Position numbers and translations under genes: made by a program. Positions 2,421-39,514 of a DNA stretch of 64,000 nt are shown one piece after another. Positions within the stretch are counted from its first letter, which is position 1. Each line of letters starts with the position of its first letter. The notes below the pieces were generated by a model, which made no database searches, was not told the DNA's origin, and was given only the letters and a program-made list of their open reading frames with translations. The stretch spans positions 1,297 through 65,296 of IMG/VR virus record IMGVR_UViG_3300009709_000004; one strand, given 5' to 3'. The DNA is from a virus. Taxonomy: Duplodnaviria > Caudoviricetes.

Positions 2421-3910
2421 TAGCGGAATTTTTGCAATACGTCAGATGCTATTCGCATTGGTGGCGCAGTAGTTTGAGTGAGATTGGTGAATGCGCCCGC
2501 TAATGCATCCACTTGGTCATCGTGTGTGGAGGCCGGAAAAGATGCGAGCTCCTCAAGGAAATCTCGGTTCCAAGCGGATTGCACGATGCCGACGTTACCG
2601 ATATTGATTTGTGCCGCAACCGGTGTTGCCCGGTTGGCCTTATTCGTATCCTCACGCTCTACGCTAACAGAATACCCAGCAAGCTTTTGTACGTAGAAAA
2701 AAGCTGTGGATTTTCCGCCAGCTCCAGGGTCTTGCGGAATGCGAATGCGGCAGAACTTGCCGTCCTGTTTGGCGGTATTAATAACCGCCGAGAGAACCTC
2801 GGCAGGATCGCCACGAAACCGAACGATATTTAGCACAACAAAACGACCATCTTGAAGTCTGCCGAGCTTCAAACCGACCGTATAATCAGGGTCGCGCCCG
2901 TTCATATTTTCGGTTGCGGCCAAATCCCAAGCTCGCACCATGCTGACACAATGGGGTGCTACGTCATACGTATGAATCGCCACCGTTTTGAATAGCGAAC
3001 CTTCTATAGGTCTAGGGCGCTGCTGATAAAGCGCGGACCATTCACGTTCTCCTACCTCGCGGCGCTTATCATTTAAGATATGCAACGGATATTCTTCAGG
3101 CCAGAGAGCTTGACCGGGCAACCTGCCGAGCGGGTCCGGGATAAATTGTCCATCCTTATCGTATTGATCTTCTGCAATAGCTGGCATGCTGATCACACGC
3201 CACTGTTTACCGCCGGAAGCCATATCTTGCAGGAGCCTGCCAGCGAGGTCATCCTCATGCCATCGGGTCTGGATCAATACGATTTTCGCACCGCTGACAA
3301 GGCGAGTTATTACTTCCGCACGCCACCATGCATGCGTAGCATTGCGGATAACCTCGCTATCAGCATCTTTGCGCCCTTTGATCGGGTCATCAACGATAAA
3401 CAGATGAGCACGACGACCGGTAATTGATCCGTCCACGCCTGCAGCTCGGTAAAGACATCCGTTCGATGTACGCCAGAGCTTGCGGCTATCGTTAAGTAAG
3501 CGAAAACCAAGCAAATCTTTATGCTTTTGAATACGCTTAATGATATTCCAGGATATATCGTTCTCTGCGTATTCCGATCCGTGACTGGCGCCTATAACTG
3601 CACGAGTTTTATAGTGACCAAACTTGTTTGGTTTGGATTGCGCCATAAACCAGATTGGAAACAAGATTGCGGCGTATAAGGTTTTCGCGTGTCCTGGCGG
3701 CATGAAGATCATCAAGCGGTCTATCTCGCCTGCGGCCAGGCTTTCCAGTTCCCGAATCATAACATCGTGGTGCGCAGCCGGGAGGTACTCCTCGTCAGCC
3801 AGTGCAGACACACACCACGCGCGAAAGCTCTTTTTGACTAGCCGACGATGTTGCTCGGCTAGGACATGTAGGTATTCTTCTAGTAGCTCGCGGTTTTCGG
3901 TATCTAACAT
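2420..3910 (-). CDS. terL: Terminase large subunit
   Basis: Walker A MPPGHAKT, Walker B FIVDDP, IQTRWHEDDLAG coupling motif, nuclease motifs RAWDLAA and HDDQVDA. Confidence 0.95.
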   Translation of the reverse strand: MLDTENRELLEEYLHVLAEQHRRLVKKSFRAWCVSALADEEYLPAAHHDVMIRELESLAAGEIDRLMIFMPPGHAKTLYAAILFPIWFMAQSKPNKFGHYKTRAVIGASHGSEYAENDISWNIIKRIQKHKDLLGFRLLNDSRKLWRTSNGCLYRAAGVDGSITGRRAHLFIVDDPIKGRKDADSEVIRNATHAWWRAEVITRLVSGAKIVLIQTRWHEDDLAGRLLQDMASGGKQWRVISMPAIAEDQYDKDGQFIPDPLGRLPGQALWPEEYPLHILNDKRREVGEREWSALYQQRPRPIEGSLFKTVAIHTYDVAPHCVSMVRAWDLAATENMNGRDPDYTVGLKLGRLQDGRFVVLNIVRFRGDPAEVLSAVINTAKQDGKFCRIRIPQDPGAGGKSTAFFYVQKLAGYSVSVEREDTNKANRATPVAAQINIGNVGIVQSAWNRDFLEELASFPASTHDDQVDALAGAFTNLTQTTAPPMRIASDVLQKFR

Positions 3911-3938
3911 AGATGCAACATTATATGCCGTATCGCGG

Positions 3939-4508
3939 CTAGCCGCGCCGTTTCTCGGCTACGCCGAGGGTACGCTCTAATTCCTCACGGCGGCGGATCA
4001 GCGCATCATCGTCTAGTAACGCAAAATTGTCAGATTCCACATTGACGTTGCGTTGTACTGGCGCACCTTCGATGCGAGACAAAAGAGCTTCGCTTGCCCT
4101 AATACGGTTTGAACCATATTCGTCCGTGGTCGCAATAGTCAGCAGATTGTCTTTTAATATCTGGACAATCTCACGGTCGCTCATTCCTGCGTGCTGTGGA
4201 CGGTTGCGCATAGGGACATACCCAGCGCGCGGTCCGCCCCAACCGGCGCCATTAGCCGGCCGATGTTCGGGATGGTCCGGATGGAGCGGCGAAGCCGGCA
4301 ATAGCTTTCCTTTGGCGCGCAACCTCTTGTCATGAGCTTTTCGTTTCTCCGTCAAGGCGATGCCGGATACGCCTTCCTCGATTTTCTTAATGGGAGGCTG
4401 GGTACCCTGATCAGTTTTCGTGATATGCGGCTTGACGCCGAAACGAAAGCGCTGCGGCGATGCATCCCGGTGCGATCCAAGATGCACGATATTATCGTCT
4501 TTTTTCAT
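3939..4508 (-). CDS. Probable terminase small subunit
   Basis: Immediately upstream of TerL, 189 aa. C-terminal LDDDALIRRREELER coiled segment typical of TerS. Mainly positional evidence. Confidence 0.5.
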   Translation of the reverse strand: MKKDDNIVHLGSHRDASPQRFRFGVKPHITKTDQGTQPPIKKIEEGVSGIALTEKRKAHDKRLRAKGKLLPASPLHPDHPEHRPANGAGWGGPRAGYVPMRNRPQHAGMSDREIVQILKDNLLTIATTDEYGSNRIRASEALLSRIEGAPVQRNVNVESDNFALLDDDALIRRREELERTLGVAEKRRG

Positions 4509-5053
4509 GCCAAAGCTACTATGCTTCTAGACACAACGGTTTCTACTTCGCGTCCAAAAATATGCATCATTATTCTAATTCTATCAGCTTTAGAATATGT
4601 GCATATAACATGTTGACCCTCATACGCGCCCGAGGTTATTATTAGCCTAGTGCCCGGGTCAATCTCAACATAACCTTTTGGTGTTTCACCAATGGATTGA
4701 ACGCGAGCTAAATGACGGAGCTGCTCAACGGATTGTTCTGAGATAGTTGCCGGGATACCAGGTTCACGCTCTAAAACGCGATATATCCCGCGCGTGCTAT
4801 AGATCGGATGCCAAGCATCCGACATCGCAAATTCTATTAAGATATAGCCGGGCAAAAGCGGACGTTGTTCAGTCCACGTTCTGTCGGGGTTCTTAAATCG
4901 TTTATGTTCTACGGGAAACGTAAGATGTAGTGCTCGGAACCCTTGATTTGTCAGATTAAATAGTGCCCGCGTTTCTTCTTTATCATGCGTCTGAGCGACA
5001 TGCCATGATCTTTTATTTCGTGCCAGGAAGCTGTCTAATCTGAATCTTTTCAC
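4505..5053 (-). CDS. NusG/RfaH-family transcription antiterminator
   Basis: NGN domain (WHVAQT…E…A…NL..QGF; PLLPGYILIEF; STRGIYRVL) plus KOW domain (PGTRLIITSGAYEG; IMMHIFGRE). Confidence 0.88.
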   Translation of the reverse strand: MKRFRLDSFLARNKRSWHVAQTHDKEETRALFNLTNQGFRALHLTFPVEHKRFKNPDRTWTEQRPLLPGYILIEFAMSDAWHPIYSTRGIYRVLEREPGIPATISEQSVEQLRHLARVQSIGETPKGYVEIDPGTRLIITSGAYEGQHVICTYSKADRIRIMMHIFGREVETVVSRSIVALA

Positions 5054-5067
5054 AACTGCATCAGACG

Positions 5068-5099
5068 GCTACCGCAGGCGGCGTACCAAGCACGCCGCC
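5068..5099 (-). promoter_or_regulatory. ops-like element (GCGGTAGC) preceded by a GC hairpin in the leader of the RfaH-like gene
   Basis: Minus strand reads GGCGGCGT-gcttggt-ACGCCGCC-T-GCGGTAGC-cgtctg. The element ends 14 nt before the GTG at 5053. E. coli ops core is GGCGGTAG. Confidence 0.6.
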
Positions 5100-5163
5100 G
5101 AGTAAGGCGATGCCGCCACTGATAGCTTCGCCATCGATCGATCGTCAAGCGCCGCGAATATCA

Positions 5164-5382
5164 TCAGTCGCGAGGTACTCGCGGCACGTACACGACCGTG
5201 GGCTCAAAGCCTAGCCGCTGCGCTAGACGCTTTGGTACCCGCTTCCTGCCCCGAACGATCTTATACATGTCACTTATGTCGATACCGTAACGACGGGCGC
5301 TCATTGGAATAGTTTCCGAGGGATGATCTGATATGTCGTCTAAGAGAGCTTCTAAAACGTCTATGTGCGAAAAAGTTTCCAT
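5164..5382 (-). CDS. Small Cro-like HTH protein
   Basis: 72 aa. SARRYGIDISDMYKIVRGRKRVPKRLAQRLG fits an HTH pattern. Confidence 0.6.
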   Translation of the reverse strand: METFSHIDVLEALLDDISDHPSETIPMSARRYGIDISDMYKIVRGRKRVPKRLAQRLGFEPTVVYVPRVPRD

Positions 5383-5439
5383 AATAAGATGCTCTATTGT
5401 AGTCTATACGTTAGACAAGTCTATACACTAAGACAAATT

Positions 5440-5553
5440 CTAGTACGGCTAGGAGAACCTAGTACGGCTAGGAGAACCTAGTACGGCTAGGAGAACCTAG
5501 TACGGCTAGGAGAACCTAGTACGGCTAGGAGAACCTAGTACGGCTAGGAGAAC
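5440..5553. repeat. Six exact tandem copies of 19-bp ctagtacggctaggagaac (iteron-like)
   Basis: Read directly from the sequence. No spacers. Followed by an AT-rich tract. Confidence 0.95.
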
Positions 5554-5665
5554 TGTGTGATTTTTTGTTTCTTTTGGCTGTTTTGTTAGTTTGTTGGCCG
5601 AGCGAGCTTGCGAGCGATGCCGACACACTAACAAAACACTTGTTTAGTATCACAAAATAGACCAT

Positions 5666-5714: not shown

Positions 5715-5952
5715 TTTTAGCTGAATTTTTCTAATCTATATTAAAACACACTAACATTATACAAACGTGTTAGTGTTTCTACCTCGGAACAATAAGTGGT
5801 TTTGTAAATTTTTTACTTTCCTGCGCCCGCGTACGCGCCCGCGTAGTATACATGACGCGCGCGTACGCGCGGAGTTTCTTTCTCTGACTCTATGCCGTAG
5901 AGGCCGAGCTTTGGCTGGCCCTACGGCGAGGGGGCGGAAGATTAATCACTAC

Positions 5953-6009
5953 CATTGACCTTTGAAAATGCCTTCCGCCTTCGGCGTCCGGCATTTTCAA
6001 AGGTCAATG
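5953..6009. repeat. Perfect 20-bp inverted repeat with 17-nt loop
   Basis: cattgacctttgaaaatgcc … ggcattttcaaaggtcaatg. Confidence 0.9.
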
Positions 6010-6262
6010 TTAATAATTAATCTCCCACACCTCCCCGCAGAAAAGCTGTGTTTTTCAGAGGTACAAAAACCGTAGAGTCCGCGTACGCGCGTGCGAGTGC
6101 AGGCGCCCGCGTACGTGCCCGCACGCGCTCGCACGTACGTGCCCGCGCGAGAAACTTGTATAACTACCGAAATGAAACTACGCTAACCATAACAGATTAC
6201 CGGGAAACTAAAATCCTTAATCGATCGTTGAAACCGCGCTAGGTAAAGTGCTAAGGGGCGGT

Positions 6263-8587: not shown

Positions 8588-9606
8588 AACATAATTGGCG
8601 GGGGTTGTTCAATGAAATCAAAGTAGCTTGGCGAGATCGCGGAAAGAATACATCGCAAAACAACGTTAACATCTGCTGCCCGTGGTGTGGCGATGATGGT
8701 GGATTTCATCTAGCCATTAGCGAGGAACACGGCGCTTACTATTGTTGGAGGAACCCGCGCCATGCAGGGCGTGATCCCCTTCGTTTGATCGCGTTTCTAG
8801 TCGCATCTCGTGATGCGGCTGTTCGATTGCTGAATAAGCATCGAAAAAATGTCTATAATCAAGAAATAACTAAAAAACCTGTAATTTCAGATGTATCGTC
8901 ACGTTGGGATTTCTTTGATCCTGCATATCAATCCCATAGATGCTTAGATTATCTTGAAAATAAACGCGGCATACCTTATCCGAGGGAAGTGTGCCGGCAG
9001 TACGATATTCGACATGCGCCCGTCGGAAACTGGGCGGCTCGTATTATCCTGCCTATTCACAGCAACGATAAAGTTATATCTTGGATAGGACGGTCTATGC
9101 ATGATCGTCTTTTGCCAAAGTATTACCTTTTGCCAAACTCGCCTGATAATCTCATATATGTTCCCCGCGCCGCGCGCAAAAACATGATAATAGTTGAAGG
9201 ACCGTTAGATGCTTTGAAGGGCGCTGCTGCTACCGAAGATCAAGACGTGTCGTTTCTCGCTCTTATGGGAAAAAATCTAAATTATGGGCGTCAAGCGCGG
9301 ATCAAAGATGCGTGCTTTCATTGCGAAAACGTGTTTGTTTGTTTGGATAACTCTGCTGACGTTTTACTAACAGCCCGATTTTCCTTGGTCGATACGCTTG
9401 CGCCTGTGTTGGTAAACAGTTACGTTCGTGTCGCGCGCGCCCCGGCTAGCGTGAAAGACGTGGCCGACATGGGGTTCGTCGAGATTGGCGAATGGGCGCG
9501 GCGGATTACGGAGGCGATGAATGGGCGACAAGGCGGTGACTCAAGAGCGGTTCAGGTTTTGCCGGCGGCGGCCGGTTTACCGGCCACGGTGGGGCGGTAC
9601 ATTTGA
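8584..9606 (+). CDS. DNA primase (Zn finger + TOPRIM)
   Basis: CPWC…CWRNPRH Zn-binding region, RIILPI, IIVEGPLDALK, VCLDN. Confidence 0.85.
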   Translation: MKHNWRGLFNEIKVAWRDRGKNTSQNNVNICCPWCGDDGGFHLAISEEHGAYYCWRNPRHAGRDPLRLIAFLVASRDAAVRLLNKHRKNVYNQEITKKPVISDVSSRWDFFDPAYQSHRCLDYLENKRGIPYPREVCRQYDIRHAPVGNWAARIILPIHSNDKVISWIGRSMHDRLLPKYYLLPNSPDNLIYVPRAARKNMIIVEGPLDALKGAAATEDQDVSFLALMGKNLNYGRQARIKDACFHCENVFVCLDNSADVLLTARFSLVDTLAPVLVNSYVRVARAPASVKDVADMGFVEIGEWARRITEAMNGRQGGDSRAVQVLPAAAGLPATVGRYI

Positions 9607-10072
9607 AATTTGGACAAAAAAGTACGTGTATAAAAATTTTTGGCGCGTGCGAGAAAAGTTCGGCACTCAGGAAGATGCCATTCAAGAGTGCATTGTGATC
9701 TTTTTGAAGTGTGCAGATCGCTATGCCGGCACGGTAGACAACGCACGATGGTTTATGTCGCTGTACACGCAATCCGTGCATAATGCGTGGGTCAATGCCG
9801 CCAAGGCTAGCACCAAAAGCGGCGGGTCTGTCTCTTTTGACGCCGCCACCACTCTTGTGGAAGCGCTATATCCGCAGGCAGCTGATGCTACGCTGGCAAC
9901 CTCCATCGCAGAATGCGGTGCCGAGGTAGCAGACGCATTCATGACTATCGTGAATGCTCCGGGCGAATTTGCCGAGTTTTTCGTGGGCAAACATCGTGCC
10001 AACTATCGGATTAACGGCGTCGAACCGGCGCATATCAACACAATCCGCGACATCCTCCTGCCCAGTACGTAG
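9521..10072 (+). CDS. Hypothetical protein, possible sigma-70 region-2-like domain
   Basis: GGAGG SD before 9521. FGTQEDAIQECIVIFLKC…FMSLYTQSVHNAWVN resembles ECF region 2. Confidence 0.45.
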   Translation: MGDKAVTQERFRFCRRRPVYRPRWGGTFEIWTKKYVYKNFWRVREKFGTQEDAIQECIVIFLKCADRYAGTVDNARWFMSLYTQSVHNAWVNAAKASTKSGGSVSFDAATTLVEALYPQAADATLATSIAECGAEVADAFMTIVNAPGEFAEFFVGKHRANYRINGVEPAHINTIRDILLPST

Positions 10073-10172
10073 ACGTTAGCGATTTCCGCTATTGCAGTGT
10101 GCGCCGTGATCTGGCCATATGCGGGACATCGCGTACCGCATATGGTACGACGAGGTGTAGGAGCAAAAAACC

Positions 10173-11057
10173 ATGGTGCGCCGTGTAACACAGTCTGTAC
10201 GAACTGATGAGGATGAGGTCGAGGTTGATCCTGCGCCGAAGCCGTTGACCGGCCTGGCGGCGTTCAATGCGAAACGGGCTGCGCAAGCTGCGCAAGAAAA
10301 GGCATCTCAAACGAAAGTACGGCCCCTTGCGCCGGTTACGGCGCCGACGTCATCGGCTGATGACGAAGACGATGAGCTGGACGAAGCCGATGAGGCTGAC
10401 GCCGACGAAGGCGCAGACGGGGCGGACGAAGCCGAGGAGCTGGACGAAGCCGATGAGGCTGACGCCGACGAAGGCGCAGACGAGGCGGACGAAGCTGATG
10501 AGGCTGACCCCGCAGTCGCCGCGCTGACCGGCATCCACCGGGAAATTTTCGTGTTCGGCCGTGCGGGCGATCCGACGCTAGCGCCACTACACCCCCGGGA
10601 AGCGGCCACGGCGCGGGGGCGTCAGCTGTATCTCAGTCGGCTGATGGATGCTTGCGGCGTCGCTGATGACCCGTACTACGATGCGCTGAGTGAACCGGCG
10701 AAAGCCTGGTTCAACTTCAATGGTCGCAGATATTCCCAGGGCCATCCGGTCCAAGAGTTCGATGATATGGCGGTGGCGAAAGCGCCGTCGCTCCGTCCTG
10801 TCATCCTGAAGCCGGCCGAACGCCCGGTGCGCGTCAAGCCGGCTCGGGAACCTCGCGCGCCCCGGGTCCGCAAGCACGGTCGGACGTACTACCTGCAGCT
10901 GGCCGTTGCTAAGAATCCGAACATCGCTCTTGATGATCTGATTGAGGTTATCGGCGGCGGGAAACTGAGTCGGCAGACCGTGCAAACGCAGCGGAACTGG
11001 GGTCGCGGTATGATCCAAGTGCTCCAAGAGCTGGGATGGACTGCGCCGGCAAAATAG
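10173..11057 (+). CDS. Acidic repeat protein with basic, possible HTH C-terminus
   Basis: D/E/A-rich tract built from a 63-bp tandem unit (10374-10436, 10437-10499). Confidence 0.7.
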   Translation: MVRRVTQSVRTDEDEVEVDPAPKPLTGLAAFNAKRAAQAAQEKASQTKVRPLAPVTAPTSSADDEDDELDEADEADADEGADGADEAEELDEADEADADEGADEADEADEADPAVAALTGIHREIFVFGRAGDPTLAPLHPREAATARGRQLYLSRLMDACGVADDPYYDALSEPAKAWFNFNGRRYSQGHPVQEFDDMAVAKAPSLRPVILKPAERPVRVKPAREPRAPRVRKHGRTYYLQLAVAKNPNIALDDLIEVIGGGKLSRQTVQTQRNWGRGMIQVLQELGWTAPAK

Positions 11058-11059
11058 AG

Positions 11060-11075
11060 TGTTTCACGTGAAACA
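11060..11075. promoter_or_regulatory. Canonical parS site TGTTTCACGTGAAACA
   Basis: Exact match to the bacterial chromosomal parS consensus, inside a 24-bp perfect palindrome (11056-11079). Confidence 0.8.
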
Positions 11076-11082
11076 CTCTTAG

Positions 11083-11115
11083 AAAAGGGGCGGGAAATTT
11101 CCCGCCCCTTTTTTC
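11083..11115 (+). terminator. Rho-independent terminator
   Basis: aaaaggggcgggaaatttcccgccccttttttcgtttt: GC stem followed by a T-tract. Confidence 0.85.
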
Positions 11116-11165
11116 GTTTTTGCCTGCTGTATAGTGTGGTCTATCCATTACGGAAGGCATGAGCG

Positions 11166-12227
11166 ATGTACTCGAACGAACTAAAGGCGCAGCTAGCGCC
11201 GATCAAGAGACTGACAATTTCCGCATCTTTACCTCTCGCTTACCGGGCTTTGTACCTCAGTCGAAATTCCATAAAAGGATGCTTTTCGTCAGGCATCCTA
11301 GAACTCAAGATAGATCACGGCCTTACCGAACCGGTTTACGTGTTGGGCGCGAACTTCTTGGCGATTATCGATTCTCTGCCGGATAAACAAACTGTTGATT
11401 TGAGAATAGTTGATAATGCTCTGGCTTGGACCTGCGGCAACGCCAAAGGTCGCATTGCTACGCTAAGCCATGTTGATATGCCCAGCGTGGACGAGATTAG
11501 CGGCACCTCTTGCACACCGTCCGAGGAATTTTGCAAAGCCTTGGCGCTGGGCGGAGTGTCTTGCGGCAGTGTCGCCGCGATCGCGACGGGATCATACGGC
11601 GTAGCGCTCGATAACAGCGGGGATTTTTGCATCTATTCCACTGACGACGTGACAATTAGCATTTGTTTTTGCGATATCGAAAAAGACGTTTTTCCCAAGC
11701 TTGTCACTCTGGCGCCAGAAGCGGCCGATTTGCTGTCTAGTCTTATTGATACCAAAAACGGATCATTAGTTGCAACGGAGGAAGATGTATTTTATAACGA
11801 TCCGCATTGCAAACTGCTAATTAAGCAGATGCCGGCCATGTCTAAAGATGTACCATCCGTCATCGCGGCCTATCTCGGTGGCAGTACTAAGGTTGAGATC
11901 GATCCGGATCGGGTCGGCGCTTTTATCAAAAGAGTTACACGCATTGCCGAGCAAAACACCCAGGTTTACGTAGCTTTAGGCATTAAAGACGAAAAACTTA
12001 TCTTTAGCTTTGATGACGGTATCTCATCATCAGAAGAATATTATTTGTGCGACGAGCTTAAGGGTGTGCCAGACACAGCTCTTGTCCGGATCGACGCCGT
12101 GCGGGCGGCGCGGGCGCTGAAACACAGTTCGCGCATCGTGCTAGACCACATCGATCGCGGCCCGATCGTGTTTGAGGGGTCCAAGCCAGATTTCCATTAC
12201 ATCATCGCAGGGCGGCACGCCGCCTAG
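11166..12227 (+). CDS. Sliding clamp (DNA Pol III beta-like)
   Basis: 353 aa with a DnaN-like length and alpha/beta pattern. Adjacent to the polymerase and clamp-loader genes. No diagnostic short motif. Confidence 0.6.
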   Translation: MYSNELKAQLAPIKRLTISASLPLAYRALYLSRNSIKGCFSSGILELKIDHGLTEPVYVLGANFLAIIDSLPDKQTVDLRIVDNALAWTCGNAKGRIATLSHVDMPSVDEISGTSCTPSEEFCKALALGGVSCGSVAAIATGSYGVALDNSGDFCIYSTDDVTISICFCDIEKDVFPKLVTLAPEAADLLSSLIDTKNGSLVATEEDVFYNDPHCKLLIKQMPAMSKDVPSVIAAYLGGSTKVEIDPDRVGAFIKRVTRIAEQNTQVYVALGIKDEKLIFSFDDGISSSEEYYLCDELKGVPDTALVRIDAVRAARALKHSSRIVLDHIDRGPIVFEGSKPDFHYIIAGRHAA

Positions 12228-12237
12228 CAGGGATGGT

Positions 12238-12338
12238 GTTTGCCGGCCCGAGAAAGCCGTGGGAGCCCGTGCCGTCTTTGGCCGCTATGACGGTAGCGGC
12301 GCCGCTTGTATGGGCTTCCACGGCTTTCTGAGGCCGGC
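12238..12338. repeat. Dispersed long-hairpin element, copy C
   Basis: gtttgccggcccgagaaagccgtgggagcccgt … atgggcttccacggctttct. Confidence 0.75.
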
Positions 12339-12370
12339 GCGACTAGCGCGGCATTCGGAGGTAGCGGGCT

Positions 12371-14896
12371 ATGGGCTTTTTCACTCCGGACGAGGAACTA
12401 GACCGGCAACATAAGCTCGCAAAAACAATAAAAAAGATTAACAAAGTAAGAGATAAGAAATCTGTCACCGGCCCGAGTCTCGGCTGTGATGCTTGCGCGC
12501 TTAAGCGCACATGGCCGACGTTGAAAAGCCCTATGATGAAGATGACCGGTAACATTGAAACCGGTGATATTCTAATTTTGGGAGAAGCGCCTGGCGAAAA
12601 TGAAGATTTACAAAATCAGCAATTCGTCGGCGAGAGCGGCAAGCTCCTGCGTGATATCTTGCCTTTTAAGCATACTAAAAGGCTCGCATACCAGAACATA
12701 GTTCGTTGTCATCCGGCCGGTAACGATACGCCAAATGCCGAGGTTGTGCGCGCATGCTCGATCCACCTGGAGCGCGACATAACCGCCCTGAAGCCGCGCG
12801 CGATCCTCGGAGTCGGCGGTACGCCGCTATCGGGCGTGTTTCCGGGGCAGTCGATTACGGATTTGCACGGCTTGCGTATGCCGGTACAGATCGGCAGTCA
12901 TGTTGCGTGGTATTGGCCAATCCTGCATCCGGCTTTTGTTCTGCGCATGGGCGGCAGGAAAAGCAATGCTTATCCTGTGTTCCGCGCGGATATAACTAGG
13001 TTTTTTAGCGAAGTCGATTCTTGGGATAAGCCTAAGATGGTTAGCTTGTCTATAGACAGTATAATAAAACCAAAATCATTAGCAGAAGGCATATCCTTAC
13101 TAGAAAAAATGTGCTTGCCTCTGTCTATAGACGTTGAAACCACGTCGCTTACGTCGAAAGAGATTGACGCAAAACTGTTAACCGCGGCTATTAGCGATGG
13201 AAACACAACCATAGCATTCTGCGTGGATCACCCCAGATTTCCAAATGATTGGGGCTTAAAGCTGCTTCATAAGGCGATTACTAAACCGTGGCTGTCTCAT
13301 AATGCGGCTATGGAGCTTAAATTCTTTTTACGTTACTATCCTGATACCGAGCCCGCGCCGTTTGATGATACGCAAGCTCTTGCGAGATTAAAGTATCAGC
13401 GTGTAGGGGCGGGCAGCCTTGATATCGTATCTAAGCTCAATCTGGGCATAAACGTTAAAAGCTTAAGCGATCTAGATACAAAAAATTTGATGCTTTATCC
13501 GATCGAAGGCGTTTTGAACTATAATGGTCTAGATGCGTTAGCGACGCGGCTTTGCTACGATCGTATGAAAAATACCGTAGACAAAACCAATTACCAAAGA
13601 CTTATTCGATCTATTCGCGCAGTTACCCACATGGAAATGATGGGAATTTGCACAGATCAAACTGAGGCAAAGAGGCAGCAAGAATATTGGCAAGCGGTAG
13701 AACGGGATGAAATCGCTAAGGCCAAAAAGATTTATGAAGTGCGTGAGTTTGAACTGCGCAATATGCGCCCCTTTAACATTGCGTCGAACAGCGATGTCGG
13801 CGAGGCATTGGCCGTCCATGGGAGGCTTCCGCTTCCGCCGAAAGCGGCGCGCGGTGGCAAGCGCGCGTGGTCTACCAGTGAGGAAGATTTGTTGAAGTGC
13901 GCACCAGATAACCCGCTTGTTCGAGCTGTGATAGCCTATCGAGAAGCTGTCAAGATGAATAGCACATATCTATCAAGTGTGCTTGAGGCGCCGGCTCGGT
14001 ATGGCACAAATTATATTCATCCGAAATATACTATTCTTACAGTCCGCACCGGCCGCATGTCTAGCGTGGACCCTAACGCGCAAAACTGGCCTAAGCGTGA
14101 CGCAGCGCAGATAAACCTGCGTAAAACGATTATCGCTAAGCCTGAACACATCTTTGTCGCGTTTGACTATGGTCAAATTGAGGCCAGGATCATAGCGTGC
14201 GCGACCAAAGATAAAAACTTAATACGAAAGACGATTGCGGGATATGATGTTCACGCATATTGGCGCGACAGGGCGTTGTCATTGCATCCTGACTACATCG
14301 AACGGTTTAAGCAGCTAAGCGGCAGTTTAGATCACAAAAAGATATTAAAAAGTGCTCGCGACACGATAAAGTCTGATTTTGTGTTCGCGGCTTTTTTCGG
14401 TTCTAGTGATACTTCTATAAGCGAACGCTCTGGATTGCCGCTAACTATTTCCGGTCAGATGCTTGATGAGTTATGGCAGGAGTTTCCTGGCGTTCGGGCT
14501 TGGATTAAACAACAGCGCCGACAATATTACGAAACTGGATGCATCTATACGTTAACCGGTCGTGTGCGTTACGGGATCGCGTCTGGTAATGAAATGATAA
14601 ATACTCCTATTCAGGGTAGTGCCGCAGATATTATGCTTGACGCCTGCTCAGAACTAAGTGAGATGAGCATAGCGGAAAACGATCCGTATCTGCATCCCCG
14701 CGTCGCCATTCATGATGATCTAATGTTTGAGCTGCCGGATGACGGCCGGCTGTTGATGTATATAGAACGTATCTGGCCAGTTTTGACCAAAGTTCGCTAT
14801 CCGTGGCTCGTGGTGCCGCTGATTATCGAGGCGAGAATAGGCACTACATGGCGCGATCTAGAAGACTTTGCGGTGTTTGAAGGAAAATATGCGTGA
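12371..14896 (+). CDS. polA: Family A DNA polymerase with N-terminal family-4 uracil-DNA glycosylase domain and 3'-5' exonuclease
   Basis: UDG: CDAC, LGEAPGENED, FVGESG, NIVRCHP, ILHPAF. Exonuclease: IDVETT. Polymerase: TGRMSSVDPNAQN, FDYGQIEAR, RDTIKSDFVFAAFFG, NTPIQGSAAD, IHDDL. Confidence 0.95.
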   Translation: MGFFTPDEELDRQHKLAKTIKKINKVRDKKSVTGPSLGCDACALKRTWPTLKSPMMKMTGNIETGDILILGEAPGENEDLQNQQFVGESGKLLRDILPFKHTKRLAYQNIVRCHPAGNDTPNAEVVRACSIHLERDITALKPRAILGVGGTPLSGVFPGQSITDLHGLRMPVQIGSHVAWYWPILHPAFVLRMGGRKSNAYPVFRADITRFFSEVDSWDKPKMVSLSIDSIIKPKSLAEGISLLEKMCLPLSIDVETTSLTSKEIDAKLLTAAISDGNTTIAFCVDHPRFPNDWGLKLLHKAITKPWLSHNAAMELKFFLRYYPDTEPAPFDDTQALARLKYQRVGAGSLDIVSKLNLGINVKSLSDLDTKNLMLYPIEGVLNYNGLDALATRLCYDRMKNTVDKTNYQRLIRSIRAVTHMEMMGICTDQTEAKRQQEYWQAVERDEIAKAKKIYEVREFELRNMRPFNIASNSDVGEALAVHGRLPLPPKAARGGKRAWSTSEEDLLKCAPDNPLVRAVIAYREAVKMNSTYLSSVLEAPARYGTNYIHPKYTILTVRTGRMSSVDPNAQNWPKRDAAQINLRKTIIAKPEHIFVAFDYGQIEARIIACATKDKNLIRKTIAGYDVHAYWRDRALSLHPDYIERFKQLSGSLDHKKILKSARDTIKSDFVFAAFFGSSDTSISERSGLPLTISGQMLDELWQEFPGVRAWIKQQRRQYYETGCIYTLTGRVRYGIASGNEMINTPIQGSAADIMLDACSELSEMSIAENDPYLHPRVAIHDDLMFELPDDGRLLMYIERIWPVLTKVRYPWLVVPLIIEARIGTTWRDLEDFAVFEGKYA

Positions 14897-17188: not shown

Positions 17189-18108
17189 TGCCGTTCAAAT
17201 ACGTAAAGCGTGATCCGGCGATGGTCGAAGCGCGCACAAATCAGGTGGGGGCGAACTACGATGGCCCGATTATTTCGGGCGTAAAAATATACTCAGTTCG
17301 GACGGGCGAAAATGTCATCCGGATCATGCCGGCAACTTGGGACGTAAACGGCAAAGCTCCGGAGCATTACGGCTACGACGTGTGGGTGCATGGGCGTATC
17401 GGCCCGGATAATGAAATGGTTATCTGTCTCGCAAAGCAGTTTGAGGACAAGTGCCCCATTTGCGAGGCGCGCGAGAGCTTGGATCGTCGGGGTGATGAAG
17501 AAACCGCAAAGGGCCTAAAGCCGGTTCGTCGCGTATTTATGTGGATCATCGACCGGAAAGATGAATCTAAAGGTCCGCAGATATTTCAATGCCCTTGGAC
17601 CTTGGACCAAGATATAGCGAAAGCAAGCAAAAACAAGCGCTCGGGAACATATTATGTTGTCGAAGACCCGGAGGAAGGTCATGATATCTCTTTTGAGAAA
17701 GAGGGGGCTAATCTCGCCACGCGATATGTGACAGTTCAGGTCGAGCCAAGTTCAAGCGCACTTGCGTCCAACGAAAAACAGACGAATGCGCTTATCGAAT
17801 ATATTGCGGAACGGCCGATCCCCAATCTGTTGAACGTCAAAACCTATGAACAGATCGCCCGTCTTTACCGCGGAGGCGGTTATGATGATGAGCCGGCGGT
17901 GGCCGATCCGGCGCCGTCACCTAAGTCGCCGAAATTGTCGGGTTCCGGCGCGGCGAAAGCCGTCATTCCGGAGGATGAGCTGCCGACATTCGAGAAGCCG
18001 CCAGAAACCAAAAGAGTGCCGGAAAGCGCCGTTCCAAGCGCCGCAAAAAGCCGGGCGCAAGAGCTGCGCGAAATGCTCGCGCGCAAGAACCAGCAAGGCG
18101 GCAAATAG
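17188..18108 (+). CDS. Single-stranded DNA-binding protein (T4 gp32-like)
   Basis: ENVIRIMP, VHG, ICL…CPICE Zn motif, YYVVEDPEEGHDISFEKEG, acidic/flexible tail. Confidence 0.7.
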   Translation: MPFKYVKRDPAMVEARTNQVGANYDGPIISGVKIYSVRTGENVIRIMPATWDVNGKAPEHYGYDVWVHGRIGPDNEMVICLAKQFEDKCPICEARESLDRRGDEETAKGLKPVRRVFMWIIDRKDESKGPQIFQCPWTLDQDIAKASKNKRSGTYYVVEDPEEGHDISFEKEGANLATRYVTVQVEPSSSALASNEKQTNALIEYIAERPIPNLLNVKTYEQIARLYRGGGYDDEPAVADPAPSPKSPKLSGSGAAKAVIPEDELPTFEKPPETKRVPESAVPSAAKSRAQELREMLARKNQQGGK

Positions 18109-18128: not shown

Positions 18129-18164
18129 GGCCGGCAGGGATGGCTGCAGCCATCCCTGCCGGCC
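18129..18164. repeat. Perfect 36-bp palindrome between the SSB and RecA genes
   Basis: ggccggcagggatggctg|cagccatccctgccggcc. Confidence 0.9.
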
Positions 18165-21918: not shown

Positions 21919-23763
21919 ATGCGCAATGTCCATGTTGCAAGCATCACCATCGAGAACTTCAAATCGTTCGTGAATGCGACAACTATTCATTTTACCGAGA
22001 CCGTAGGGCTGATATTTTTCGGCGGAGTAAATGAGGTAGAACCGCGTCTAGGCGCCAATGGCGCCGGCAAATCCAGCCTTTGGGACGCGCTGATCTGGTT
22101 GCTGTATGGCAAGACCGCGCGAGGAAATCTCGCGTCGGAAATTACGTCGTGGGGGCAATCCCGGCCCCGTGTGCAAGCGCTGTTTCGTATAGACGGGCAG
22201 TTCTTTTGGCTTGAGCGCTGGGGTTCGCCGAATAAGCTCTACACAAAAGACGATCAGAACGAAAAGCCATATGCCATAGATCAGCGTGATGTCGAAGTCA
22301 CTATTGGTCTGACATATAAGCGCTTTCTGCAAAGCGTAATATTTGGACAGATGGTGCCGCTATTTCTCGATTTAACGATTCCGCAGCGCGGCGAACTGCT
22401 CGACGAGGTGATGGATTTAGGTCTATGGCTTCGCGCAAGCGAGCGTGCGTCCAAATCCATGGCGGAATTTCAAAGCGCAGCCCGAAAAGCATCCAATCAA
22501 GCTGACGTGCTGGCGGGCGAAGTGCGCGGGCTAGAATCTGAAGATGCCATACAAAAACAAATAGATGAATGGGAAGAACAGCGCCATAAGCTTATAGAGA
22601 TCGAACTCGCAAAGATAGAAGCTCTAGAAAAAGAGCTAGACGTATCCCTAGAAAACAAAAAGCTCGCCGAACAAGAAACGGCTGGCGACAGTCGCGCCAT
22701 ATCCGAGTGCGAAACTCGGATATCTGAGCTTACAGAAAAGATAGAAACCGCATCGAAAAAGCAGTATAAATGGCGCGCAGAACGTGTAGAACTGGATGTC
22801 CAGAAAGCTTTTTTTGCGAAACATCTTAGTCACAGTGGCGCATCTTGTCCGCAATGCGGCCAGATTATGACTGAGCAGATGCTGCGTTCAAGCATCGCGA
22901 AAATTCAGGAAAAAATTAAGGAAGCTGAGAAGGAGGAAACCAGATACCTCGCACAGCGCGATAGTCTGAGGAAAGCGCTCGCGGGCGTGACATCGCGACT
23001 AGAGACGCTGCGTCGGCAGGACCGGGATATCGAAACCCGGATCAGCATGCTGTCTCTGCGGATATCCGCGCAAGAGCGGGCGATCGAGGAAGCGATTGCC
23101 CGAGTGGAGCAGCAGCACGCATCGCACGCAAATCCCCACGCCAAGCGGCTACAGGCGGTCTTACAGCGGCGCGCCGCGCTGGCCGCACAGATAGACGAGC
23201 TGCGCGCGGAAGCGGCTGTAGCCGCCGCTAATGCCGCGCGTAGCGACTATTGGCGCACAGCGTTCAAGCGGGTGCGGCTGTTTTTAGTCGCGCGCGTGCT
23301 CACGACGTTTGAGGTCGAAACCGCGAACGCGGCTAGCGTCTTAGGTCTGCCAGGATGGCAGATCAAATACGCTACCGAAGTAGAAACAAAATCCGGAAGC
23401 ATGAAAGCCGGCATTCAGGTTCTCGTGCAATCCCCGTTGGCGTCGGCGCCATGGGAAGTATGGAGCGGAGGCGAGGGGCAGCGGATCAAGCTAGCTGTGT
23501 CGCTCGGTATGGCGGCGATGATCCAGCGCAGCGCAGGTGTAAATTTCACGTGGGAGGTCTACGACGAACCAGCCGCGTGGCTTTCTTCCGAGGGCATAGA
23601 CGATCTTCTAGAATGCCTAGATTATCGCGCACAAATTACTAAAAAAGCGGTTTGGATTATCGATCCGCGCGGTTTTAATTACGGCGGATTTATTGAACAG
23701 TGGCAAGCTATTAAAACCGTTACGGGCACTTGTATAAGGAGGATAGGCGCAACGGTGTCCTAA
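21919..23763 (+). CDS. sbcC: SbcC/Rad50-like ABC ATPase
   Basis: GANGAGKSS Walker A, CPQC zinc hook, coiled coils, SGGEGQR signature, YDEP Walker B. Confidence 0.92.
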   Translation: MRNVHVASITIENFKSFVNATTIHFTETVGLIFFGGVNEVEPRLGANGAGKSSLWDALIWLLYGKTARGNLASEITSWGQSRPRVQALFRIDGQFFWLERWGSPNKLYTKDDQNEKPYAIDQRDVEVTIGLTYKRFLQSVIFGQMVPLFLDLTIPQRGELLDEVMDLGLWLRASERASKSMAEFQSAARKASNQADVLAGEVRGLESEDAIQKQIDEWEEQRHKLIEIELAKIEALEKELDVSLENKKLAEQETAGDSRAISECETRISELTEKIETASKKQYKWRAERVELDVQKAFFAKHLSHSGASCPQCGQIMTEQMLRSSIAKIQEKIKEAEKEETRYLAQRDSLRKALAGVTSRLETLRRQDRDIETRISMLSLRISAQERAIEEAIARVEQQHASHANPHAKRLQAVLQRRAALAAQIDELRAEAAVAAANAARSDYWRTAFKRVRLFLVARVLTTFEVETANAASVLGLPGWQIKYATEVETKSGSMKAGIQVLVQSPLASAPWEVWSGGEGQRIKLAVSLGMAAMIQRSAGVNFTWEVYDEPAAWLSSEGIDDLLECLDYRAQITKKAVWIIDPRGFNYGGFIEQWQAIKTVTGTCIRRIGATVS

Positions 23764-23777
23764 CGGAAGGGTTACAT

Positions 23778-24074
23778 ATGTATTTCGATGTAGTGACGGC
23801 GGTGGTCAACGGCGAGCATCACGAGCTTTCGCTCCGCAACTTGGCGATCCTGGCGGCCGTGCACGGCCAGCCGGAATGCTCCGTTCGTGACGTTCACCAA
23901 AAGCTCGGCATCTCCAAACCATCCATTACCCGAAATGCTCAGATGCTCGCCGAACTCGGCTTGTTGGAGATCAAAAAAAGCAATATGGATCGGCGCCTCG
24001 TATATATAAGCCTTACCAAAAAAGGCAAAGGTTTTTGTAAGAAATATGCGAAGCATGACAATGTGACCGCGTAA
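23778..24074 (+). CDS. MarR-family winged-HTH protein
   Basis: LSLRNLAIL…SVRDVHQKLGISKPSITR…L.ELGLL…DRRLVYISLTKKG. Confidence 0.85.
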   Translation: MYFDVVTAVVNGEHHELSLRNLAILAAVHGQPECSVRDVHQKLGISKPSITRNAQMLAELGLLEIKKSNMDRRLVYISLTKKGKGFCKKYAKHDNVTA

Positions 24075-30315: not shown

Positions 30316-30336
30316 GGCCGGGATATCCCGGCCTTT
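30316..30336 (+). terminator. Probable terminator
   Basis: ggccgggatatcccggcc followed by ttt, directly after the helicase stop. Confidence 0.6.
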
Positions 30337-31006: not shown

Positions 31007-31042
31007 CATATCAACCAGCGCTGTATATATACAGCGCTGGTT
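31003..31042 (+). promoter_or_regulatory. Sigma70 promoter overlapped by a 30-bp palindromic operator
   Basis: TTGACA-N17-TATATA. Palindrome aaccagcgctgtata|tatacagcgctggtt at 31013-31042. Confidence 0.8.
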
Positions 31043-35937: not shown

Positions 35938-35975
35938 CGCAGAACAAACAGCGCTGTATATATACAGCGCTGTTT
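35934..35975 (+). promoter_or_regulatory. Sigma70 promoter overlapped by a 30-bp palindromic operator
   Basis: TTGACG-N17-TATATA. Palindrome aaacagcgctgtata|tatacagcgctgttt at 35946-35975. Confidence 0.8.
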
Positions 35976-36211: not shown

Positions 36212-36434
36212 CGGTCTTAGCGAGTGGACGTCAGCCCGTATTCGGACGGAAGTGTACTGCGGAGCGAATGGTGACAAGGCAAAATATGTTTTTATCCAAA
36301 TACACCACGGGAAAGACGAATTTTCAACGCACTTGATTTGGGACGGTGACCTTTGTCCTACCGCCGAAGTTCGGGCCATTTTGAAAGCTCACGGCTATAG
36401 CGATACTCCGCCGTTCGCGAAGCTCAAACAATAA
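36201..36434 (+). CDS. Hypothetical protein
   Basis: GAGG SD. Last plus-strand gene before the convergence point. Confidence 0.55.
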   Translation: MSNSGLSEWTSARIRTEVYCGANGDKAKYVFIQIHHGKDEFSTHLIWDGDLCPTAEVRAILKAHGYSDTPPFAKLKQ

Positions 36435-36466
36435 AAACCCCGGTAGGATATCCTACCGGGGTTTTT
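36433..36466. terminator. Bidirectional terminator at the junction of early (+) and late (-) transcription
   Basis: Perfect palindrome aaaaaccccggtaggatatcctaccggggttttt. Confidence 0.9.
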
Positions 36467-36485: not shown

Positions 36486-36710
36486 TTAGTCCGAGCCGAA
36501 TACGACGATTTTCTGGCCGCCGGCTAGCGTCACTGTCGGAGTAGTCGGCGCGACTCCGGCGGCGGGTGGCACGCTCTGCGCCATCAGCCGAATGTCCAGC
36601 CATATATAGTCGGCGGCGGCTGCTGCCAACGCGGTGTTGAGCGCAGTCACGGCGGTCTGCACGGCGCCGTAGAGCGTGCTGTCGGTGGTACTGTTGTCCG
36701 ACCCGCTCAC
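36486..36710 (-). CDS. Hypothetical protein
   Basis: GTGA-coupled to the upstream lipoprotein gene. Confidence 0.5.
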   Translation of the reverse strand: MSGSDNSTTDSTLYGAVQTAVTALNTALAAAAADYIWLDIRLMAQSVPPAAGVAPTTPTVTLAGGQKIVVFGSD

Positions 36711-37099
36711 GTCTTGTTGCTCACGACTTTTATCGCCGGCGCTGCGATGACCTGCAGCTGTGATGCCTGTGTCGTGATCTGGTTCGCCAGCGCCGTCAGC
36801 GAAGCCACATCCGTGCTGGCGCTGTTGAGCGCGGTCTGCGCCGCTGATGCGATCGGATCCAGCACAGCGATCGCGGCATTGATGCTGGGCGCCAATGAGG
36901 GATCGGCGAGTGCCGCGATCTGCGCCAGCCCCTTCGCCGTACCATAAAAATTGACGGCCGTGCTCAACGCGGTTTGGGCCTGCGTCAAGGCATTGCTCGC
37001 GGACGTACTCGCGGTGGTAATGGCCGCAGTCGAAGCGGCACAGCCGGTTGCCGATAGCGCGCCGAGTAATGCGATGAGAGCGGGGGTGCGGCTGGTCAT
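36707..37099 (-). CDS. Predicted lipoprotein, candidate spanin
   Basis: MTSRTPALIALLGALSATG|C lipobox-like signal, Ala/Thr-rich helical body, downstream of the endolysin. Confidence 0.55.
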   Translation of the reverse strand: MTSRTPALIALLGALSATGCAASTAAITTASTSASNALTQAQTALSTAVNFYGTAKGLAQIAALADPSLAPSINAAIAVLDPIASAAQTALNSASTDVASLTALANQITTQASQLQVIAAPAIKVVSNKT

Positions 37100-37152
37100 G
37101 GGATTATTCCTCATTCGTAATTTCGTCAGAGACGGGCGTACAGGCCGCCGGG

Positions 37153-37719
37153 CTACGCCGCCGGGGTAGACGACCCGGACGCGGGGTTATCGGTCTGGGC
37201 GACGATCCTGGGCGGCGGGGCGGGCATTGTGGTGGAGACAGAAACCGGCGGCGTCACAGGCAGGATAACACCGGCCGGGACCGCTGGCACGCTTTTGGCC
37301 GGCGCGGGGATCGGCGATGCCAGGTTGAGGTGCAGCGCCAAAGCCGCCTCGATCTTCGCCGCGATGTCAGTGGGCGTCTGGCCGAAATATGCCATGGCCT
37401 TTGGCGCTTGGTCACTGACATAGCCGATGGCGAGCTGGAGCGCGGTATTCCGAATCGGTACATTGCTAAGAAACTGGTCACCTTGCTGCTGGCCGTAATT
37501 AGCGGCTACGCCGACTGCATTGGTGATAGCGGTCTGCAGCGCTGCGCGAGACGAGGTGTCTTTCACGTAGCGTTGAACGAGAGACATTAGAACCGGCACC
37601 GCCACAGCGGCGATAACGGCCAGCACATCATTAAAGACTGGCACCAACGCTGCCGCAGTACCGGCCGCGTAGGCGGGCACAGCAAAAGCCACGCTGCCGA
37701 GCAAGATCAGCTTATTCAT
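37153..37719 (-). CDS. Membrane protein, candidate holin or inner-membrane spanin
   Basis: Two N-terminal hydrophobic segments, RAALQTAITNAV, Pro-rich tail. Coupled to the endolysin. Confidence 0.45.
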   Translation of the reverse strand: MNKLILLGSVAFAVPAYAAGTAAALVPVFNDVLAVIAAVAVPVLMSLVQRYVKDTSSRAALQTAITNAVGVAANYGQQQGDQFLSNVPIRNTALQLAIGYVSDQAPKAMAYFGQTPTDIAAKIEAALALHLNLASPIPAPAKSVPAVPAGVILPVTPPVSVSTTMPAPPPRIVAQTDNPASGSSTPAA

Positions 37720-38321
37720 TGCGAAACCTCGGATGCTTTCGGAGTTGAGGAGGGTGTCGGTTCGGGCGCGCCGGCCGGCGCCGTGTCCACCACATGCAGC
37801 GGTTCTGTCCAGGACGTGGCCAGTGCTACACGCGCGGCTAGCCGATTGTTAAAACCGCGTTCAAAACGGCGGTAGTCAGACCGCGACTGATAATATCCGG
37901 CCTGAAAAACCGCAAGTATCTTGATGAGCGTCGGTGGATCACGCTCTTTCAAAACCGAAAGCGTGTCTCGCCCGATCCAGCCGTCTAGATCGTCATCGGT
38001 CATGCCGAGCGCTTTTTGCAGGCACAGCCCTGACGCATGCACTCCGCAGTTTACGGCCATGTCCATTACCATCAGATCAAGACCGCGCGGTATGTCCTGC
38101 GATCTGGTGGCGTGAAAGTAGCTGACGGCGTAAAACGGTACGACTTCGTCCCAAGTGAGGCGCTGCATATCGTACACGCTTACGGGCTTGCGCGTATATG
38201 CCTGCCAAGCGCGCAACGTGACACCGAAGTTTGTGGCGCCGCCGGGATCATCGGGATTGTCCACGAAGCCGCCTTCGGACTTTTTGACGAAGCTCATGAT
38301 AGGCGCAAAGCTATGTTCCAC
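37716..38321 (-). CDS. Endolysin, glycoside hydrolase family 108 with PG-binding domain
   Basis: EGGFVDNPDDPGGATNFGVT, DMAVNCG, LQKALG…DGWIG, F.RGFNNR. Confidence 0.92.
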   Translation of the reverse strand: MEHSFAPIMSFVKKSEGGFVDNPDDPGGATNFGVTLRAWQAYTRKPVSVYDMQRLTWDEVVPFYAVSYFHATRSQDIPRGLDLMVMDMAVNCGVHASGLCLQKALGMTDDDLDGWIGRDTLSVLKERDPPTLIKILAVFQAGYYQSRSDYRRFERGFNNRLAARVALATSWTEPLHVVDTAPAGAPEPTPSSTPKASEVSQ

Positions 38322-39148: not shown

Positions 39149-39514
39149 TTATATTGCTGTTAACAGCAATATCCCGCTGCTCGATACAGCAAAAATCGCT
39201 GTGTGTCCGTTGTTGAGCGATATACCGGTGTTTACCGCATTCGTTTCAATCTGGTCACCGCTGTACGGATATACCGTCAACATTGATCCGCATCTGTTGA
39301 ATACGAAAACCATATTGCCGTTGAACGTCGCGGCTTGCGGCAGCACAATTCCACCGGAACCGCTGGCGACTAATATCTGCGCGAGCGACGTGGGCGTGGC
39401 CGTGAGCTGATTTGTGCCCGCTGCGACGACGGTGATGGCCGGCAACGGCTGCGGGAACAGCCCGACAAACGGCGGCATGCCCGGCTGCGGCGGGCACCAT
39501 GTGGGATAGGTCAT
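39149..39514 (-). CDS. Hypothetical virion protein
   Basis: Small-residue beta-rich ORF in the tail region. Confidence 0.55.
   Translation of the reverse strand: MTYPTWCPPQPGMPPFVGLFPQPLPAITVVAAGTNQLTATPTSLAQILVASGSGGIVLPQAATFNGNMVFVFNRCGSMLTVYPYSGDQIETNAVNTGISLNNGHTAIFAVSSSGILLLTAI

Follow-up and report, generated by a model that had tools for sequence, protein, structure and literature searches.

An orphan, perfect chromosomal-type parS site as a candidate docking site for host ParB in a virulent-looking contractile-tailed phage

The ParB-parS system segregates bacterial chromosomes and recruits SMC, and ParABS is absent from some Proteobacteria. Chromosomal centromeres of this type consist of a cluster of origin-proximal parS sites that share a 16-bp sequence, and some of these sites are embedded in longer palindromes that resemble terminators. 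Centromere-like sites are also found on phage genomes. The plasmid prophages P1 and N15 carry them as part of parABS and sopABC, respectively, where they could segregate unintegrated DNA; both phages encode their own ParA/ParB (SopA/SopB) and use site sequences of their own. A different arrangement is represented by phi29, which is classed as lytic and has five parS sites for Spo0J, the ParB of its host (PMC2731898). According to the evidence that this paper cites from Meijer et al. 2005, Spo0J helps the phi29 genome to segregate into the prespore (PMC2731898). Within the phi29 genome (NC_011048, L161), four of the sites carry 1 mismatch (TGTTTCACGTGGAACA) and the remaining one carries 3. One of the five, at 17243-17258, directly follows the gene 16 stop codon, with the annotated bidirectional terminator TD1 3 nt further on. 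In the literature that was searched, orphan host-type parS sites are described solely for phi29-type phages, and none was found for lytic phages of Gram-negative hosts.

The window analysed here is a stretch of 64,000 nucleotides that corresponds to bases 1297-65296 of a 65,296-bp IMG/VR record (IMGVR_UViG_3300009709_000004). The record has a 122-bp terminal overlap and is rated 100% complete by CheckV, and the 1,296 bases outside the window were searched as well. The sequence TGTTTCACGTGAAACA at 11060-11075 is a perfect 16-bp canonical parS, identical at 16 of 16 positions to the consensus TGTTNCACGTGAAACA, which may not be the consensus of this phage's host. It is the sole match within the window at up to 3 mismatches and the single match in the whole record at up to 2, and it sits at the centre of a 24-bp perfect palindrome, AGAGTGTTTCACGTGAAACACTCT (11056-11079). 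This palindrome begins with the last two bases (AG) of the TAG stop codon (11055-11057) that ends the upstream gene P0001 (10173-11057, plus strand); the palindrome therefore touches the stop codon, whereas its 16-bp core is intergenic. The core is separated by 2 nt from the stop codon and by 5 nt from a strong intrinsic terminator, a plus-strand hairpin at 11081-11114 that begins one base past the palindrome and closes a methylase-primase-P0001 block. This hairpin satisfies the definition of an intrinsic terminator, with a GC-rich stem of 15 pairs followed by a T-run (a U-run in the transcript). The next gene downstream, encoding the sliding clamp or DNA polymerase processivity factor (11166-12227, plus strand; phrog_947, E = 1.3e-13), opens a clamp-PolA-clamp loader block. 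A sequence-only reading of this stretch had recognised a canonical ParB loading site lying in a palindrome and separate from the neighbouring terminator, and both points are borne out, the former by the exact consensus match of an orphan site. Its description of the site as intergenic holds for the 16-bp core and fails for the 24-bp palindrome, which overlaps the stop codon by two bases.

No partner for the site is recognisable in the phage itself. Six-frame Pfam searches of the complete genome yielded neither the ParB_N, AAA_31 and CbiA domains of ParB and ParA nor Phage_integrase, Resolvase, ResT-TelK, rve or Peptidase_S24, and the complete genome has no recognisable ParB, ParA, integrase, resolvase, protelomerase, transposase or CI-type repressor. 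The earlier statement that the window lacks ParA, ParB, integrase and protelomerase genes thus extends to the complete genome, with no parA/parB or integrase in the remaining 1,296 bases. Unlike P1 and N15, the phage has no partition proteins of its own and no site sequence of its own: the neighbours of parS are P0001 and the sliding clamp, and the site is of the host type. Unlike the clustered parS sites of chromosomes, it is a lone site on a viral genome with no linked parA/parB.

The remaining gene content points to a lytic way of life. A block on the plus strand encodes an N6/N4 methylase, a primase, P0001, the sliding clamp, a UDG-exonuclease-PolA fusion, a clamp loader, a gp32-like SSB, a UvsX/RecA-like recombinase, a PDDEXK resolvase and an Mre11/Rad50-like pair, and further a MarR-type protein, a radical-SAM protein, a DnaB-like helicase and an SNF2 helicase; the virion and lysis genes are on the minus strand. 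This 65-kb phage is of the contractile-tail type with a T4-like replisome, and because it combines such a replisome with the absence of integrase, repressor and partition genes, it looks virulent by gene content. Its host is probably a Gram-negative proteobacterium, as indicated by a GH108 endolysin with a PG_binding_3 domain (37716-38321, minus strand), by a lipoprotein in the lysis region and by capsid and terminase relatives in proteobacterial phages. The capsid protein is ~51% identical to the capsids of Klebsiella and Aeromonas phages and matches 541 records, mostly from Pseudomonas, Acinetobacter and Xanthomonas phages, and the closest relative of the large terminase is found in an Acetobacter phage (46%). 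In addition to the endolysin, the lysis region (36707-38321, minus strand) encodes a membrane protein (37153-37719) and the lipobox lipoprotein (36707-37114), which could be a spanin.

Compared with phi29, the likeness lies in a host-type parS, the absence of an own ParB and ParA, a lytic classification with no module for integration or lysogeny, and, for one of the phi29 sites, the same order of stop codon, parS and terminator. The differences are also considerable. Phi29 has five sites, none of them perfect, whereas the window phage has a single perfect one; phi29 is a 19-kb podovirus with protein-primed replication, whereas the window phage is a 65-kb phage of the contractile-tail type with a T4-like replisome. 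Moreover, phi29 infects a spore-former, in which its sites together with Spo0A boxes serve spore entrapment, whereas the lysis genes of the window phage are of the Gram-negative type, so that spore entry cannot be the purpose here.

Palindromes and repeats are a prominent feature of this genome in general. A divergent intergenic region of 1.4 kb between the late and replication blocks, ~5.5 kb from parS, holds seven perfect 19-bp iterons in tandem (CTAGTACGGCTAGGAGAAC, 5440-5572), in agreement with the iterons mentioned in the sequence-only reading, as well as a family of CGCGTACGCG-type palindromes (5820-6150). It is a candidate origin or control/regulatory region. Nine perfect loop-less palindromes of 16-36 bp occur in the whole genome, mostly at gene ends, including those at window positions 18129-18164, 36433-36466, 35946-35975, 31013-31042, 39151-39172 and 30316-30333. 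Many palindromes of 6 bp, on the other hand, are strongly avoided: the genome has no AGGCCT, CTCGAG, GAATTC or GTCGAC and a single copy each of GGATCC and ACGCGT, a depletion that looks like restriction avoidance.

Could the match to parS be accidental? A given 16-mer palindrome is expected ~1.5e-5 times per 64 kb of random sequence. As the genome is unusually rich in perfect palindromes and in hairpins, a fairer figure is the chance that one of its nine palindromes of at least 16 bp is parS, which amounts to 9/65,536 or ~1.4e-4. Across IMG/VR, the perfect parS is present in at least 119 contigs, compared to 2 for the same palindrome read backwards, a control of identical composition that is thus ~60 times rarer. 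The parS loci fall into at least 101 clusters by flank similarity, and therefore one abundant lineage does not account for their number. In addition, CACGTG, the core of the site, is avoided in this genome (4 observed versus 11 expected) and is retained in parS. On the strength of these sequence counts, we conclude that the site is not a product of chance, and its strong enrichment in viral contigs without ParB makes it probably functional. Mis-binned contigs that contain host DNA could account for part of the enrichment in IMG/VR. Genome-wide, there is no excess of ParB half-sites (GTTTCAC 3 and GTGAAAC 2, with ~4 expected).

Orphan parS sites are by no means confined to this phage. ParB_N was found in 3 of the first 100 parS-bearing viral records tested. 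Of the 25 among them with a completeness of 90% or more, a single one has ParB_N and it alone has a tyrosine integrase, leaving 24 near-complete genomes with neither. Orphan parS therefore has the appearance, judging from gene content, of a recurrent trait of non-integrating phages. A phi29-like polymerase, capsid, connector or packaging ATPase is encoded at 25 of the at least 119 parS loci, often with 2-4 sites each, and 22 other loci have a large terminase related to that of the window phage. In 9 of these 22, no more than 150 bp separate parS from terL downstream of it, and arrays of five perfect sites stand upstream of terL in two (L022 and L061), which suggests that parS is linked with the packaging or genome-start region in these phages. 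Measured from the inferred terL start, parS is located 24-149 bp upstream in L011, L026, L036, L039, L059, L062, L093 and L119, and also in L061, L105 and L022. Eight phage loci form an unrelated group in which the non-coding DNA upstream of terL has diverged and is rich in indels while the 16-mer is identical; by its pattern this island of identity is a footprint of selection, in a set from which only contigs with a perfect site were retrievable. Proximity to a terminator was considered as a general rule for such sites and rejected: a terminator-like hairpin lies within 20 nt of 6 of 162 viral sites, versus 16 of 1,620 random positions, a control that was not matched for intergenic DNA. From these comparisons it may be, at somewhat less than an even chance, that borrowing of host ParB via an orphan chromosomal parS is a widespread strategy of non-integrating phages in multiple lineages, including virulent phages of Gram-negative, non-sporulating hosts. 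It would serve an as yet undescribed purpose, such as the inheritance of unintegrated genomes in carrier or pseudolysogenic states or the manipulation of ParB/SMC.

On the bacterial side, the exact 16-mer was found in 50 of 301 sampled genomes of the proteobacterial class that contains Marinobacterium, compared to none of 301 for the reversed control. The entire 24-mer is present at 34 bacterial loci from many phyla, of which 11 belong to Eggerthellaceae or close kin and 3 are proteobacterial. These loci give no taxon signal and have no flanking sequence or genes in common with the phage, and for that reason no donor or host is indicated.

Relatives of the window phage are scarce. Megablast of 9000-13000 against GenBank phages and tblastn with the clamp returned no match, and no cultured phage has a PolA more than 31.6% identical to that of the window phage. 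When IMG/VR was scanned with PolA, the clamp and an alignment of clamps, L121 came up as the sole related contig; two metagenome scans added nothing new, as L162 and L121 are one and the same contig. A 13.9-kb Logan contig encodes P0004, a second clamp relative. L121 is a 9.6-kb fragment of a distant relative, with 31-64% amino-acid identity (primase 53%, P0001 homologue 31%, clamp 50%, PolA 64%). Its P0001 homologue (2760-3698) has the same architecture and is followed, directly past the stop codon, by a long terminator hairpin with 28-nt arms (L121:3702-3762), in the same place as the terminator at 11081-11114. The position of the terminator is thus conserved between the two phages, whereas parS is not. 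The sequence-only reading had pointed to the syntenic position in related phages as the place to look for parS; in L121 the palindrome is absent from that spot, and the closest parS-like matches overall have 3 mismatches and lie within ORFs. Consequently, there is no evidence of conservation for the site in the window. L121 also has two extra genes (3779-5423) between the terminator of the P0001 homologue and the clamp gene, which are absent from the window phage, and its clamp gene overlaps the gene upstream.

What, then, might the site be for? We give an even chance to its being a functional docking site for the chromosomal ParB of the host, in a phage that looks virulent and encodes no ParB, in the manner of phi29. 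Confidence in this reading of the sequence is moderate because parS is not conserved in L121 and the host is known no more closely than as a probable Gram-negative proteobacterium. After injection, dimers of host ParB would recognise the 16-bp site and, having bound CTP, would close into clamps that slide outwards. The sliding clamps would build a partition complex on every copy of the phage genome, which would couple phage DNA to the ParA/SMC machinery that organises the host chromosome. The likeliest benefit would be the positioning and inheritance of unintegrated phage DNA during a delayed lytic cycle, for instance in starved or slow-growing cells or in a carrier state, as a Gram-negative counterpart of the ParB-dependent entry of phi29 into the prespore. 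We infer both the binding of ParB in this host and all that would follow from it, and a cognate ParB is assumed; positioning or inheritance of unintegrated genomes in a delayed infection is our preferred guess as to the purpose. The sequence-only reading had likewise proposed that the phage may borrow host ParABS/SMC, and listed four purposes: segregation as an episome, localisation of replication, titration of ParB with disturbance of the host cell cycle, or a chromosome-like appearance to SMC-type anti-plasmid defences. The orphan canonical site is in favour of the borrowing itself, for which phi29 is a precedent that the reading did not mention, while the four purposes are not separated from each other. 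Of these, the stable episome has lost ground, given that the phage has a full replisome and recombination set like those of T4 and that no repressor, integrase or plasmid gene is recognisable in it.

Alternatively, ParB binds and the purpose is to manipulate the host, either by titrating ParB or SMC or by letting ParB/SMC compact phage DNA or shield it from nuclease or SMC-type defences. Each genome has one site, and its replicating copies, in their hundreds, would soak up ParB or SMC and disturb the organisation of the host chromosome. The same sequence evidence speaks for manipulation as for docking, and the virulent-looking gene content provides little reason for plasmid-like maintenance. 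It is also in favour of manipulation that promoters can be repressed by ParB bound in their vicinity in Pseudomonas aeruginosa (PMC5521831). However, no gene of the phage points to interplay with SMC or defence systems, and phi29, the one experimentally studied case, uses its sites for segregation. Manipulation as the purpose is therefore an improbable one in our judgement.

A second alternative is that the palindrome is mainly a structural RNA or DNA hairpin, acting as the first hairpin of a compound terminator or as a stabiliser of the 3' end, with its identity to parS being incidental or inherited from a donor. As RNA, the palindrome forms a stem of 10 bp capped by a 4-nt loop, and the fold of 11040-11125 consists of two adjacent hairpins inside an outer 7-bp stem (GGCAAAA 11048-11054 / TTTTGCC 11118-11124, plus strand), with an energy of -46.1 kcal/mol (z = -8.0 versus shuffles). 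The hairpin begins inside the stop codon, ends 1 nt from the terminator-like hairpin and has company in the other long perfect palindromes of the genome, most of which are at gene ends. It also reaches 4 bp past the ParB core on either side, and since this symmetric extension is not required for ParB binding, it points to a role as a hairpin. Bacterial copies of the 24-mer often form the stem within a longer palindrome that has A and T tracts on its flanks and resembles a terminator, and hence parS doubling as a hairpin occurs naturally. Hairpins of this kind that resemble bidirectional terminators are found in L127, L129, L132, L136, L138, L142, L150, L152, L157 and others, and are conserved across Eggerthellaceae MAGs. 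Among Rfam families, all matches are under their thresholds, and identity with a known RNA family was rejected on that basis; one sRNA model of the same two-hairpin shape, SpF03_sRNA (RF02426), scored 37.6 bits versus a gathering threshold of 50, and its first hairpin is not parS. Against a mainly structural role, the parS hairpin is no intrinsic terminator by definition, as it is followed by UAGAAAAGG and no U-run, and a strong terminator already stands next to it. L121 makes do with the terminator alone at this position. An incidental identity to parS would furthermore have to overcome the ~1.4e-4 calculated above and the rarity of the reversed control. We therefore doubt that structure is the main function, and a hairpin role would in any case be compatible with ParB binding.

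The third alternative is a recent and selectively neutral acquisition, in which a short insertion derived from a host or donor has no role in the phage. The parS palindrome looks like an insertion into the 5' arm of a long terminator hairpin, because the outer stem brackets both hairpins and because the terminator of L121 has 28-nt arms. The putative inserted segment is ~25 bp long, is bounded by TAG...TAG and has parS inside it. Both this segment, within what appears to be an older long terminator hairpin, and the lack of the site at the exact syntenic spot in the only relative are in keeping with a neutral insertion. Yet the flanks are unlike those of any of the 34 bacterial loci with the same 24-mer, the segment is exactly symmetric about parS, and the otherwise avoided CACGTG has been kept. 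Across ~100 independent lineages of phages, moreover, orphan sites recur, and at least one of these lineages has conserved them, which makes neutrality unlikely.

The protein encoded directly upstream offers little in the way of a dedicated partner. P0001 has an N-terminus of acidic repeats and then two small helical domains with a basic linker between them, the C-terminal one ending in a three-helix HTH, and is next to replication genes in both the window phage and L121. Its AlphaFold model has a pLDDT of 89.7, and in Foldseek its last three helices weakly resemble HTH and homeodomain folds. The C-terminal half has ~47 remote relatives, and 21 of 28 match phrog_38529, a family of unknown function. 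Members of the P0001 family have an acidic or charged repeat at the N-terminus and a conserved helical domain, RQxYLxRL...W..LS..AQxW. P0001 was also considered as a hidden ParB and rejected, in view of its domain searches and predicted structure: there is no ParB_N domain, and two small helical domains and weak HTH matches are all that it presents. As it is not ParB-like and its L121 homologue is found without the palindrome, P0001 as a palindrome binder is given low weight. That the palindrome is an operator for a phage DNA-binding protein rather than a ParB site, be it for the HTH of P0001, confidently modelled and encoded directly upstream, or for the winged-helix MarR-family protein at 23730-24074, is very improbable, as the site is present in one copy per genome with no excess of related half-sites, lies at the 3' end of a gene and not at a promoter, is missing from L121 despite the P0001 homologue there, and would have its exact identity to the host consensus left unexplained.

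Docking of host ParB is the reading that we carry forward. Taken alone, one unconserved site in an uncultured phage is a modest finding. What is new is an arrangement like that of phi29 in a very different phage with a probably Gram-negative host, and the perfect site in at least 101 independent viral lineages, almost all of them without ParB, suggests that the trick is a common one. If host ParB does load onto the site, a virulent phage of a Gram-negative host would gain a handle of 16 bp, cheap to carry, on the machinery that segregates the host chromosome. Little is understood of pseudolysogeny and carrier states, and the docking reading, if true, would provide them with a concrete, testable mechanism for the positioning or inheritance of unintegrated phage genomes.
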